Assembly: GCA_045638685.1 (NCBI GenBank)
Contig: JAZUBT010000007.1
Coordinates: 59,057-123,056, forward strand
DNA length: 64,000 nucleotides
Direction: 5' to 3'
Source of the DNA: Eubacteriales bacterium
Lineage (GTDB): Bacteria > Bacillota > Clostridia > Oscillospirales > CAG-272
In this document: in pieces, positions 20,443 to 23,418 of the stretch
How the letters are laid out: every line of letters starts with the position of its first letter
How positions within the stretch are numbered: position 1 is the stretch's first letter
Position numbers and translations under genes: made by a program
Notes under the pieces: model-generated
What the model saw: the letters and a program-made list of their open reading frames with translations, nothing else
Told to the model about the DNA's origin: nothing
Database searches by the model: none

Positions 20443-21342
20443 TTATTTTTTCGGTATGATTTCCGAAAGGTTGCTTTGAATAGCTGCCGCGACCTCGGGT
20501 TTGTTCATCGAATAAACGTGAACTGCGTTTATACCGTTTGCAAGTAGGTCTATTATCTGATCGGTAGAATAAGCGATTCCCGCCTGCATCATAGCGCGCG
20601 GATTTGTACCAAAGTGATCGACAAGCGCCTTGAAGCGCTGCGGCATATGTGAGCCGGACAGCTTTATGGCTCTTTCCACCTGCTTTGCGTTGGTTATAGG
20701 CATAATGCCTGCGACAACGGGAACGGTAATTCCCGCCTCGCGTATTTTATACATAAAGTTATAAAATAGGTTATTGTCAAAAAACATCTGTGTTGTTAAA
20801 AACTCACAGCCTGCGTCAATTTTTTCTTTAAGATATTTAATATCTTCCTTTTGACACGCGCTTTCCGGATGCACCTCGGGGTAACACGCGCCACCTATAC
20901 AGAAATCCTCCCCGCTCTCTTTAAGCTCGCGGACAAGCTCTGCGGCGTGACTGTAATGCCATTCGCTTTTGTCGTCGTTTTTCATGCTCTCAGGAATATC
21001 TCCGCGAAGCGCAAGAACGTTTTTGATGCCGGCAGACGCCATATCCGTTATCCTTTCACGTACCGTTTCTCTTGACGAGGAAACACAGGTAAGATGCGCG
21101 ATAACAGGAACCTCGTATCTCTCCTCGATGTCCCTTGCAATATCAAGCGTATATTTGCTTGTGCCACCGCCCGCGCCGTAGGTTACGCTCATAAAATCGG
21201 GTTTAAGCACCGCAATATGCTCGGCAGCGTCCTTTACCGTTTCGTACGTGTCGCTCGTTTTCGGCGGAAACACCTCGAACGAGAGTGTCGGAGACTGTTT
21301 TTTAAAAAGCTCGGAGATTTTCATTTTCGGTTTTCCTTTCAT
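20443..21342 (-). CDS. metF: Methylenetetrahydrofolate reductase MetF
   Basis: SFEVFPPKT, VTYGAGGGT and ALRGD motifs. The likely start is MKISELF (21324), preceded by AAAGGAAAA. A TTGATT-17-TGnTATAAT promoter lies at about 21361-21389. Confidence 0.92.
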   Translation of the reverse strand: MKGKPKMKISELFKKQSPTLSFEVFPPKTSDTYETVKDAAEHIAVLKPDFMSVTYGAGGGTSKYTLDIARDIEERYEVPVIAHLTCVSSSRETVRERITDMASAGIKNVLALRGDIPESMKNDDKSEWHYSHAAELVRELKESGEDFCIGGACYPEVHPESACQKEDIKYLKEKIDAGCEFLTTQMFFDNNLFYNFMYKIREAGITVPVVAGIMPITNAKQVERAIKLSGSHMPQRFKALVDHFGTNPRAMMQAGIAYSTDQIIDLLANGINAVHVYSMNKPEVAAAIQSNLSEIIPKK

Positions 21343-21527
21343 AAAAAAGGCTTTTTTCTAATTATATCATATTTTACGCTGAAAATCAATTCTTTAAGGA
21401 GATTTTATATGCTTTTTTGCAAAAAGACGGTTATTTTCTTTTTACAAATAAAAACGGGAGGTTAATAACCTCCCCTACAAATTTTGCGAAAAGAAAATCC
21501 GAAGATCGATAACCTCACCTTTACGTT

Positions 21528-21698
21528 TTAGCGCTCCTCTTTCTTTACAAGAACGTATTTGGGATTTCTGATGAGTACGCCTTCTTTAGTAATCAGAATT
21601 TCCACATCTTTATCAAGGTTAAAAAGCTTTCTTATTTCTTTAGGGATACAAATTCTCCCCATACAGTCTATCTCTTTTCTAACACCAATGTTTTCCAT
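21528..21698 (-). CDS. AbrB/SpoVT-domain DNA-binding protein (56 aa, below the ORF-track cut-off)
   Basis: Translation is MENIGVRKEIDCMGRICIPKEIRKLFNLDKDVEILITKEGVLIRNPKYVLVKKEER. GRIxIPKEIR is the swapped-hairpin AbrB motif. SD GAGG lies 8 nt upstream. Confidence 0.7.
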   Translation of the reverse strand: MENIGVRKEIDCMGRICIPKEIRKLFNLDKDVEILITKEGVLIRNPKYVLVKKEER

Positions 21699-21959
21699 TT
21701 TTTAACCTCGTTTTCTTAAAATAAAAAATGCGACAACCGAAGCTGCCGCACAAAACACAAACTCCGATTCGTCGCTCAACAAACCCTACGCAAACGGTAC
21801 TTTGATACCCTTATACACAGTTGGAATTTGTATTTTTCCTAGTCTTTCTGTATATAAGGACAAAATGGGCATAGTTATCCCTTGTTCAAAATAAACGCGT
21901 TTGCTAATATTTAGTTTGTTGAGCATTGATATTATAACACAAAAGAAAACCTTTGTCAA
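21699..21959 (-). promoter_or_regulatory. Promoter plus ~225-nt structured leader with an intrinsic terminator upstream of the AbrB-like gene
   Basis: TTGACA-17-TATAAT at 21931-21959. An 11-bp long-range helix pairs 21914-21924 with 21774-21784. There is a 12-bp inner helix CCTTATATACAG/CTGTGTATAAGG. The terminator GCGGCAGC-UUCG-GUUGUCGC plus U-run lies at 21717-21749. Confidence 0.6.
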
Positions 21960-22425
21960 GATAAAAAATTCGTGTCTTTTCGTGGTTTTTCGACTTTTTG
22001 CAGCATAGAGGCCGTACCCTTACTATCTTTTCAGAAAATTTTATCCCGCGATTCGAAAAGCACCCACCTCGGAGAAAAACCGCCGTGCTCCACCCCGCGA
22101 TTTGAATGTAACCTTTGGGTTCATTCAAAAAATCAGCCGTGCTTTTTGGCTGATTTAGCGGATAGCAAGGCTTAAAATTTCCACCTTTACGGAAAAACAA
22201 AGGCTACGTTTTTCAAAATTCGCTACGACGAAATTTTGAAAAAATGCCGCCGTGGGGTTGGCGGCATTAGTACGCAGCAAGGCCGGGCTTTTCCACCCAC
22301 GCTCTTTTTTCTTTTGGTGCCTTTTCTTTTTTCTTCGGAGAAACAAGAAAAGACACGAAAAAATAAATCGAAATCTCAAAATTCCTCCTGATTTAAATTA
22401 AAAGCCTGTAAAAAGCACCGGAAAT

Positions 22426-23418
22426 TTATCCGATGCCTTTTTCCGCAAGGTAGCTTTCGTACGCCTTCTTTAAATTCTCCGCAATGCTTATACGCAGAGC
22501 CTTCGGGTATATAACCTCTATATCGCTGCAAAGCCCGAGCGCAAAGGATTTAAACGCCTCCGCCTCGCAGTAAACCTGCATTTCTACCTTACCTCTGAAA
22601 TCCCTTATCGCCTCGGCGCTTTCTCCAAAGCTTTCATATACTCTTTCAAGGGCGTTCTGCCCTGCGATAAATACTATTCTCTCCTTTTTATCAAAATACG
22701 GTCTTTCCGCTTCAACCTTGTTATAAGGAAGATAGCCGTCGTAGGAGATGAGTGCGCTTTTTCCTACTATGTCGGTTACCGTAAGGTCGTACATTTTGTC
22801 AATCGGGAAATACATATATCTTCCGCTGTCTCCTATCGCGCCGAGCAGCTTAAAGCCGCCTCCGGTGCTTATAACCGTTTCGGGATTTACAAGGTACTCG
22901 ATAACCTGACCGCGCTCGTCTCTTTTAAGTCTAATCTTTCCGTTCTTTTGATAAATAATAACCGAAAAGCTAAGCATTTTTCTTTCCTTTATTGCTCCGA
23001 GCACTACCGAAAGCTTTTCCCTGCACGAGCTATGGTTAACCGTGCTTCTGCCCGCAAAAATCACCTTTTGATACACACCGAAATCGCCAACCTGCGCTGT
23101 CAGCTTTTTAAGTATTTCCGCGCCCTCGCTTTTGGGCACGTTAGGGTTTATTGCTATACTTTCGGCAAGCATTTCCTTTTCTCTTTCGGTAAAAATACGC
23201 TCGGCGCGCCAAAAACGCTTGTCCGTTTCCGAAATATCGGCAAGACCGTAGCTCATAAGCAAGAGAAGGTTGCGTTTAACCGTTTTTCTGTCAACCTCCC
23301 AGTTAAACTCCGTTTTAAGAAGCCTCGTTATCTCGCTTACGCTGATACCGTCTCCCCTATCTCCGTATTTTTTCAGGATCTCAAGTATAAACCACTGCGT
23401 TCTTCTTTTGTCGGACAT
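22426..23418 (-). CDS. WYL-domain transcriptional regulator (wHTH-WYL-WCX architecture)
   Basis: 330 aa. N-terminal wHTH (ISVSEITRLLKTEFNWEVDRKTVKRNL), a central WYL-like segment (LSFSVIIYQKNG...FKLLGAIGDSGRYMYFPIDKMYDL), and a C-terminal tail with IEVIYPKALR. Confidence 0.7.
   Translation of the reverse strand: MSDKRRTQWFILEILKKYGDRGDGISVSEITRLLKTEFNWEVDRKTVKRNLLLLMSYGLADISETDKRFWRAERIFTEREKEMLAESIAINPNVPKSEGAEILKKLTAQVGDFGVYQKVIFAGRSTVNHSSCREKLSVVLGAIKERKMLSFSVIIYQKNGKIRLKRDERGQVIEYLVNPETVISTGGGFKLLGAIGDSGRYMYFPIDKMYDLTVTDIVGKSALISYDGYLPYNKVEAERPYFDKKERIVFIAGQNALERVYESFGESAEAIRDFRGKVEMQVYCEAEAFKSFALGLCSDIEVIYPKALRISIAENLKKAYESYLAEKGIG

Follow-up and report, generated by a model that had tools for sequence, protein, structure and literature searches.

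The locus studied here raises the question of how a solitary gene for a small AbrB-type protein is expressed when a strong terminator stands between the gene and its promoter, and what the structured RNA ahead of that terminator does. The gene lies on the minus strand of a 64,000-nucleotide (nt) stretch of contig JAZUBT010000007.1 (assembly GCA_045638685.1) from a Eubacteriales bacterium. This whole stretch is called the window, and positions are counted from its first letter. A sequence-only reading had described the region 21528-21959 as a riboswitch-like leader, in which a promoter, a multi-helix domain enclosed by a helix P1 and an intrinsic terminator precede an open reading frame (ORF) of 56 amino acids (aa). 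Every feature listed in that reading was confirmed on the minus strand at its coordinates. The leader is almost certainly a genuine conserved structured RNA. Together with its homologues, it probably represents a previously uncatalogued family of cis-acting transcription-attenuation leaders, that is, of conditional terminators.

The near-consensus promoter proposed for the leader is present, and the promoter scan gave 12/12 consensus matches together with a TG extension. Transcription is predicted to start at or adjacent to G21924, the first base of P1, and the P1 5' strand begins seven bases past the -10 box. The perfect 11-bp P1 formed by the first nucleotides of the RNA, the enclosed 12-bp inner helix and the strong UUCG terminator with its U tract were all recovered as well. 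The two arms of P1 are separated by 129 nt, and the inner helix (P4a) consists of 11 Watson-Crick pairs and one G-U pair. The minimum free energy (MFE) of the 209-nt RNA was -66.8 kcal/mol against -44.4 +/- 3.9 kcal/mol for its shuffles (z = -5.7, 0/200 as good). The 5' domain alone gave z = -5.9. The parts of the locus are listed below, where b and c denote two complementary elements and SD a Shine-Dalgarno sequence.

21931-21959, minus strand: sigma-70 promoter, with -35 TTGACA at 21959-21954, a 17-nt spacer and a TG-extended -10 TATAAT at 21936-21931
21718-21924, minus strand: whole terminated leader RNA, about 207 nt (fold and family profile match)
21914-21924, minus strand: P1 5' strand GCUCAACAAAC, also written GCTCAACAAAC (inverted-repeat search)
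21913-21905, minus strand: A/U-rich 5'-side internal loop, just before P2 (predicted fold)
21884-21904, minus strand: P2 5' strand GCAAACG.GU..AUUUUGAAC, with small bulges (predicted fold)
21867-21881, minus strand: P3, a small hairpin GGG-AUAACUAUG-CCC branching off the P2-P4 hinge (predicted fold)
21848-21859, minus strand: P4a 5' strand CCUUAUAUACAG (inverted-repeat search and helix list)
21823-21839, minus strand: P4b, the apical hairpin GGAA-AAAUACAAA-UUCC (predicted fold)
21836-21823, minus strand: conserved element b, AAAAUACAAAUUCC, within P4b, complementary to linker c
21809-21820, minus strand: P4a 3' strand CUGUGUAUAAGG, pairing with 21859-21848
21790-21808, minus strand: P2 3' strand (predicted fold)
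21774-21784, minus strand: P1 3' strand GUUUGUUGAGC, the perfect partner of 21924-21914
21752-21775, minus strand: switch strand, in which the antiterminator 5' strand overlaps linker c
21775-21760, minus strand: antiterminator 5' strand GCGACGAAUCGGAGUU, also written GCGAC.AAUCGGAG (MFE fold of the 3' block)
21765-21752, minus strand: linker c, GGAGUUUGUGUUUU, overlapping the antiterminator 5' strand
21728-21751, minus strand: terminator hairpin GUGCGGCAGC-UUCG-GUUGUCGCAU (DNA GTGCGGCAGC-TTCG-GTTGTCGCAT), 10 pairs
21744-21730, minus strand: antiterminator 3' strand, made of the terminator loop and 3' arm (alternative fold)
21718-21727, minus strand: U tract of the terminator, UUUUUAUUUU (DNA TTTTTATTTT; terminator scan)
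21528-21709, minus strand: SD GAGG at 21709-21706 and the 56-aa ORF resembling an AbrB N-domain alone, with ATG at 21698 and stop at 21528-21530; presumably the regulated gene
21456-21474, minus strand: terminator closing the leader-plus-AbrB unit (terminator scan)

Homologous leaders were found by three routes. The closest homologue of the AbrB-like protein (82% identity; metagenome contigs) led to the leader L005/L006. The L005 leader is 73% identical to that of the window and has the same predicted shape (z = -7.7). Between the two, P1, P2 and P4 have been rewritten by compensatory changes, and the linker and terminator are identical. A scan of metagenome contigs with a 20-mer from the terminator gave 17 hits, four of which were true homologues (L038a, L049, which is nearly identical to L038a, L045 and L042); the remaining hits were chance matches in GC-rich DNA. 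The L038 contig carries a second copy, L038b, at 2.1 kb from L038a. Finally, the protein database was searched with translations of the conserved 3' block for ORFs miscalled over the RNA, and L050 and L051 were recovered. The family therefore comprises eight copies, seven of them distinct in sequence, namely the window copy and seven further ones, six of those distinct (window, L005/L006, L038a/L049, L045, L038b, L042, L050, L051). The copies beyond the window come from gut or rumen Clostridia metagenomes. The nhmmer family profile matches the window at 21924-21719 with E = 1e-45, and this is the single copy in the 64 kb. In all members, a promoter with a 17-nt spacer ends 6-7 nt ahead of the GC that opens P1. 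Fold z-scores ranged from -5.7 to -9.7 across the five members tested. Downstream of groEL, the orthologous loci L050 and L051 have nearly identical flanks but RNA stems that are almost wholly different. The stems of the leader RNA turn over very fast relative to their surroundings (L051 699-720 versus L050 776-800).

The 5' domain, about 150 nt long, is a hinged rod in all members, composed of P1, P2, an optional P3, P4a and P4b. P1 has 10-16 bp and is followed by the A/U-rich 5'-side internal loop, and P4a has 8-14 bp. A helix equivalent to P2 was listed for every member with differing sequences. The P4a sequence of the window is entirely different in every other member, with pairing retained. 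P3 recurs in 6/7 distinct members; its 9-nt loop is AU-rich and its 3' flank U-rich. L050 lacks it and forms an unbranched rod with a 13-nt bulge at the hinge; L051 has other side hairpins there in place of the usual set. The distance from the end of element b to the 3' end of P1 is constant at 44-48 nt, and the stem sequences are unrelated between members.

Covariation was evaluated on anchored P1 (10 pairs, seven distinct members). All of the pairs were retained (100%), and 5/10 had changed on both sides. On four of five measures, 0/500 shuffles reached the observed value; the fifth measure, further pair types, was reached by 52/500. When the partner was slid by 1-3 columns, P1 pairing fell to 27-55%. 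Compensatory changes keep both P1 and the inner helices in the homologues, which is the behaviour that the sequence-only reading had named as a check of its proposal. The sense strand folds more stably than the antisense strand in 7/8 members, and G-U pairs number 36 against 16. This sense bias in stability and in G-U pairs indicates that the structure acts as RNA on the promoter-driven strand.

The most conserved part of the family lies behind the rod. The approximately 60 nt after P1 are almost invariant, with the consensus GCGAC.AAUCGGAGUUUGYGUUUUUUGUGCGGC(A/G)(A/G)CUUCGGUUGUCGCAYUUUUU. The terminator core 20-mer is identical in 5/7 distinct members, and one A/G position differs in the other two. 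A GC-rich hairpin with a U tract lies between promoter and ORF in the window and likewise in L038a, L038b, L042 and L050. When the 3' block was folded alone, the MFE structure was an antiterminator and not the terminator in 8/8 members. Across the members, the antiterminator was computed at -20.9 to -23.9 kcal/mol and the terminator at -14.8 to -16.8 kcal/mol (window: -21.9 and -14.8 kcal/mol, respectively). In the antiterminator, GCGAC.AAUCGGAGUU pairs with AGCUUCGGUUGUCGC, where GCGAC-GUCGC forms the outer part and AAUCGGAGUU-AGCUUCGGUU the inner part. The earlier proposal of a GAGCGAC/GUCGC antiterminator therefore survives as the outer part of a larger conserved structure. Two details support the reality of both 3'-block folds. 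In L038a, a 2-nt deletion in the linker leaves the pairing in a shifted register (GCGACAAC with GUUGUCGC), and the two variable A/G positions of the terminator 5' arm stand opposite U in both folds. A conserved alternative fold that overlaps and excludes the terminator, as expected of an attenuator, is thus present in 8/8 members.

The sole conserved sequence of the 5' rod is the apex of P4, AAAAAUGCAAAUUCC (AAAAUACAAAUUCC in the window). This apex is complementary over 14-15 bp to the linker GGAGUUUGYGUUUUU, which overlaps the antiterminator 5' strand. In 8/8 members, no part of the 5' domain paired better with c than the P4 apex (-15 to -19 kcal/mol), and only 0-3 of 500 shuffled linkers were as good across members. 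The b:c duplex of the window has 14 bp and -16.3 kcal/mol (0/500 shuffles as good). Over the seven distinct sequences, the 14 pairs of this helix are 99% paired, with two compensatory double changes (UAC/GUG in the window and CAAG/CUUG in L005) and five pairs in which a single-side change preserves pairing. The pairing of the apex with the antiterminator 5' strand and the two compensatory changes suggest that b:c may work as an anti-antiterminator. The energies of an ON state (P4b plus antiterminator) and an OFF state (b:c plus terminator) were summed, and they differ by 0.6-7.8 kcal/mol before any pseudoknot penalty. Such near-equal energies are as expected of a switch.

A chain of four competing pairings can be proposed from these elements. 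The promoter would start the RNA at P1, and the first ~150 nt would fold into the rod. The four pairings would be a:b (the P4b hairpin), b:c, c':e (the antiterminator) and d:e (the terminator). Pairing b:c would be a long-range pseudoknot between the apical loop and the linker GGAGUUUGYGUUUU and would act as the anti-antiterminator. If b holds c, no antiterminator could form, the terminator would fold and an RNA of ~207 nt would be released (OFF). If b stays within P4b or is engaged in some other way, the antiterminator, as the more stable fold, would form and RNA polymerase would read through into the AbrB-like gene (ON). The hinge or the apical hairpin could respond to a protein, an ion or a small molecule, or the input could come from another RNA. 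We infer that b:c forms within one molecule and decides termination; that the apex-to-linker pairing is the deciding step seems only slightly better than an even prospect. The a:b hairpin is cut to 4 bp in the window and L005, and the AbrB-linked copies are therefore predicted to lean to termination.

The genes behind the leaders bear on whether it acts in cis. They are listed by member below.

window, L005: AbrB-like gene
L038a, L045, L049: BspA-type leucine-rich-repeat (LRR) lipoprotein, a surface protein
L038b: unknown 111-aa protein
L042: unknown 136-aa protein
L050, L051: XRE repressor, downstream of groEL

In 5/5 independent contexts, an SD and an AUG follow on the same strand ~10-25 nt past the U tract, and promoter scans of the stretch from the U tract to the start codon detected nothing promoter-like. 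The earlier statement that the AbrB-like gene has no promoter of its own is in line with this, since none was found between its terminator and ORF. These contexts, together with the conserved antiterminator, favour a conditional terminator over a free-standing RNA, and the leader is likely to act in cis. The one-nucleotide difference that separates L051 from L050 at the XRE ORF places a stop after the fourth codon of the ORF as called in L050.

The leader was compared with catalogued RNAs. With Rfam 15 at gathering thresholds, the window gave two tRNAs only. At E <= 10, the region 21300-22500 gave noise, the best hit over the leader being PhrS with 18.9 bits against a threshold of 37, and the four other member loci searched gave no match at E <= 1. 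Nothing similar to the leader was found in phage, plasmid and viral collections, and full-text literature searches yielded no description of it. The assertion of the sequence-only reading that the RNA falls outside the known riboswitch classes is thus borne out by the covariance-model scan. Its assumption of a ligand-binding aptamer fared worse, as a conserved core was not seen and neither the junction nor P3 is universal. The features of a metabolite riboswitch are lacking in the family: there is no fixed junction, the internal loops are unconserved and the downstream genes are functionally incoherent. The conserved bases fall instead in b, c and the terminator/antiterminator block.

A classical metabolite or ion riboswitch, with the P2/P3/P4 junction or the internal loops as an aptamer that sets the terminator choice, is accordingly an unlikely explanation. 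It would suit the order of the RNA, in which a multi-helix domain closed by P1 precedes terminator and antiterminator folds that exclude each other, as well as the recurrent P3 with its AU-rich loop and U-rich flank. The constant rod length and the loop-to-tail contact also resemble the compaction-based logic of the M-box and SAM-I riboswitches. However, after the alternative pairings have been allowed for, no junction or bulge position is left that is conserved, P3 is missing from L050, and L051 forms other side hairpins. Moreover, conservation is stronger in the expression platform than in the presumed sensor, whereas known riboswitch classes show the opposite; the genes downstream have no functional relation to one another, and Rfam offers no match. 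Because the junction and loops are unconserved, the platform outconserves the sensor and the genes have no common function, the RNA is not called a riboswitch here. A shade less probable again is an independent trans-acting small RNA (sRNA), for which read-through would be incidental and the UUCC-containing apical loop could, for instance, pair with Shine-Dalgarno regions. The strong promoter and strong terminator of its own, the conserved apical loop atop a stable rod and the presence of at least two copies 2.1 kb apart on the L038 contig would all fit an sRNA. So would the unrelated genomic neighbourhoods and the absence of the module from the syntenic WYL-metF loci of close relatives. In that case, however, a conserved antiterminator that outstabilises the terminator would have no purpose, and the co-oriented SD and AUG within ~25 nt, without a promoter-like site between, in 5/5 contexts would be unexplained. 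The 64-kb window also holds no other site complementary to b beyond chance, and likewise none for c. The stand-alone sRNA with leaky read-through, which the sequence-only reading had kept as a fallback, is therefore less likely than a cis leader.

The same two elements could also meet between molecules, so that loop b of released leaders captures c on nascent transcripts of a sibling or of the same type and forces termination. Such a system would be a chromosomal counterpart, encoded in sense, of plasmid attenuation by antisense RNA. Among the elements able to be single-stranded, b and c are the two best conserved, and all copies have them. As b is apical and the U-rich 3' part of c is looped in the antiterminator fold, a loop-to-loop start would be possible, and one contig does carry two copies. 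Intramolecular pairing is kinetically favoured, however, the constant 44-48-nt rod strand fits a cis geometry and the 64-kb window has a single copy, which makes attenuation in trans improbable. The least credible group consists of a palindrome or an element resembling a miniature inverted-repeat transposable element (MITE) acting at the DNA level, a remnant of an XRE gene and a leader-peptide attenuator; the chance of any of these being right is very small. Nested inverted repeats could in principle work as DNA, and repeated palindromic units abound between the genes of related genomes. The higher stability and the excess of G-U pairs on the sense strand speak against such an element, and the promoter and terminator frame the structure precisely in every copy. 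A decayed XRE pseudogene on the opposite strand was rejected, as tblastn with the XRE protein found nothing in the window. The window rod does contain a 28-aa ORF with an SD, as a leader peptide would require. However, its start codon, frame and length are unconserved, and no internal ORF is conserved among members. The only recurrent internal "ORF", GUG-MRQLRLSHFLF, is the translation of the conserved terminator.

Several other RNA types were considered and set aside. A type III toxin-antitoxin system (ToxIN-like) was rejected because the leader has no tandem direct repeats and a putative AbrB-fold DNA binder lies downstream. The leader does have the terminal helix expected of a retron msr-msd, but none of the copies is flanked by a gene for a reverse transcriptase, and no Rfam retron match was obtained; the neighbours checked were the WYL regulator and metF in the window, and a methylase, the LRR protein and groEL elsewhere. 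An RNA thermometer was dismissed, since the computed ON/OFF balance barely moves between 25 and 45 C.

A cis-acting conditional terminator has well-known relatives. The mechanism proposed is of a known kind (terminator, antiterminator and anti-antiterminator), and it is the design that is unusual. The SAM-I/S-box and M-box Mg2+ riboswitches and the PyrR pyr attenuators control transcription termination with anti-antiterminator logic. Like them, the present leader is a promoter-proximal structured RNA whose terminator competes with an antiterminator of greater stability. As in them, a third pairing would capture the antiterminator 5' strand and thereby settle the outcome, and the ORF lies directly downstream without its own promoter. 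In contrast to them, it has no Rfam match, its rod varies in sequence and branching while the platform is near-invariant, and the genes behind it are unrelated to each other. Its anti-antiterminator is a 14-15-bp apical loop-to-linker pairing rather than the P1 3' strand. T-box leaders share a long rod-like 5' stem with a conserved apical element, a terminator/antiterminator decision, an antiterminator sequence conserved among leaders and multiple copies before different genes. However, the specifier loop, the T-box sequence with its UGGN bulge and the Stem I distal platform are all missing from the present leader, and neither aminoacyl-tRNA synthetase genes nor amino-acid genes lie behind it. 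The Rfam T-box model gave no match at E <= 10, and no UGGN-bulged antiterminator was found in the sequence. In the antisense-RNA attenuation of Gram-positive plasmids (pT181, pIP501, pAMbeta1 and prgQ/Anti-Q of pCF10), RNA pairing also blocks an antiterminating fold and the pairing element also sits in a hairpin loop. In the present case, unlike on those plasmids, the complementary loop is on the same strand and the same transcript, and the loci are chromosomal.

Some points weigh against the proposal of cis-acting attenuation. Only seven distinct sequences are available, all from a narrow group of uncultured Clostridia, and because they are related the shuffle controls overstate significance. 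The start site, termination and read-through are predictions only. The support for b:c amounts to two compensatory events, and L038a and L045 each carry one C-U mismatch. In addition, the rod would have to bend back on itself for the apex to form a 14-15-bp pseudoknot with the 3' tail. Nor is a common function evident among the regulated genes. In L038a and L038b, the AUG after the terminator is followed by an immediate stop, and the real gene begins 60-90 nt further on. At these two sites (L038 6353-6345 and 4210-4202, minus strand), a strong SD precedes AUG-UGA-UAA and AUG-UAA-UAA. They may be start-stop mini-ORFs or relics of cassette exchange.

The protein encoded behind the window leader was also analysed. 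In line with the earlier statement, the 56-aa ORF resembles AbrB, and over its whole length it aligns with N-terminal DNA-binding domains. The alignment runs end to end with 53-55-aa N-domain constructs of SpoVT, AbrB and Abh (E = 2e-4 to 7e-3). The product thus resembles the swapped-hairpin N-domain of these proteins over its full length but would consist of that domain only, without the C-terminal multimerisation domain. It scored 27.9 bits against TIGR01439, just under the curated cut-off of 28.3, and 21 bits against Pfam PF04014, under the curated cut-off of 24.7; a PF04014 hit is precomputed for many homologues of the protein. The protein is rare, with 22 clusters in 5.8 billion proteins, the 21 others at 65-82% identity.

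The leader is not tied to AbrB-type genes, contrary to what the sequence-only reading implied. It was seen only with the closest AbrB-like homologue (82% identity; L005, L006), and it was absent from all 15 more distant AbrB-like loci examined in Eubacteriales and Oscillospiraceae metagenome-assembled genomes. Those loci have no long leader and carry a divergent 79-aa XRE-type gene ~120 bp from the AbrB-like gene. Since the 15 loci have the XRE gene instead, the RNA is not a general AbrB leader. The XRE gene is 76-100% identical between loci, and its product resembles the "control proteins" of restriction-modification systems. The ~120-bp spacer between the two genes contains operator-like palindromes, TGTCTTGACATAAGACA and TTGTCCTGTCATAAGACAA, over and after the promoter. 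The arrangement of an AbrB-like gene (~58 aa) with a divergent XRE gene was seen at L001 2642-3177 and L004 2643-3177, and also in L008-L021. It looks like a two-gene regulatory module dropped among housekeeping genes.

The surroundings of the leader in the window are variable. Five related genome lineages share the neighbourhood of a WYL regulator with metF but contain neither the leader nor the AbrB-like gene, and the leader-plus-gene unit therefore lies in a variable intergenic region. The metF promoter is at 21389-21361, beyond the terminator that closes the unit. The upstream gene (22426-23418, minus strand) encodes a 330-aa WYL/WCX-domain regulator (PADLOC WYL model, E = 2e-10), whose orthologues (78-90% identity) always adjoin an ATP-binding cassette transporter pair and metF-metH. 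No functional link between this regulator and the leader was seen. The 465 nt between the WYL gene and the leader promoter (21960-22425) are packed with hairpins. They include an AT-rich inverted repeat with 29-nt arms (22306-22367) and two terminator-like hairpins (~22240-22268 and ~22126-22151), and a 25-nt inverted repeat pair (21969-21993 and 22335-22359) brackets 341 nt. Parts of this region are common to the window and L005. The region may be a repeat or MITE-like insertion, or a series of stacked terminators. Tandem GC-rich palindromic units of ~70-130 nt, which resemble repetitive extragenic palindromic (REP) sequences, were observed at L024 4006-4331, L026 3997-4377 and L050 290-480. 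They occupy the WYL-metF spacer in L024 and L026, which is the site of the leader-plus-AbrB unit in the window, and they lie upstream of the RNA in L050 and L051. A perfect 10-bp direct repeat, CGTAAAGGTG (minus strand), occurs at 21516-21525 and 22182-22191 and brackets a 666-bp segment with the promoter, the leader and the AbrB-like gene. By estimate this repeat is compatible with chance, and it could mark a cassette junction.

A wider speculation, which we consider unlikely, is that the family is a portable RNA-only module, in which a fixed-length rod offers its conserved apical loop to the antiterminator strand of the same RNA and released leaders also act in trans on sibling leaders through b:c, so that scattered genes are co-regulated. 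If this were true, AbrB-like proteins, XRE repressors and surface proteins would be co-regulated by RNA abundance or by one effector, such as a novel riboswitch ligand or an RNA-binding protein confined to these gut Clostridia.

If the model of a cis-acting conditional terminator holds, the leader would define an uncatalogued cis-regulatory RNA family of uncultured rumen and gut Clostridia. Its design would be unusual in that the platform and one apical loop are conserved and the remaining "sensor" is a sequence-free rod of fixed length. As the pairings are explicit, the effects of mutations can be clearly predicted, which opens the switch to direct tests. Under this model, control of the AbrB-like gene would lie with a divergent XRE repressor in most lineages and with the leader RNA in two, which resembles a natural exchange of one regulator, a protein, for another, an RNA. 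The family would then point to a regulon that has stayed hidden, comprising small DNA-binding proteins as well as surface proteins, in organisms for which hardly any genetics exists.

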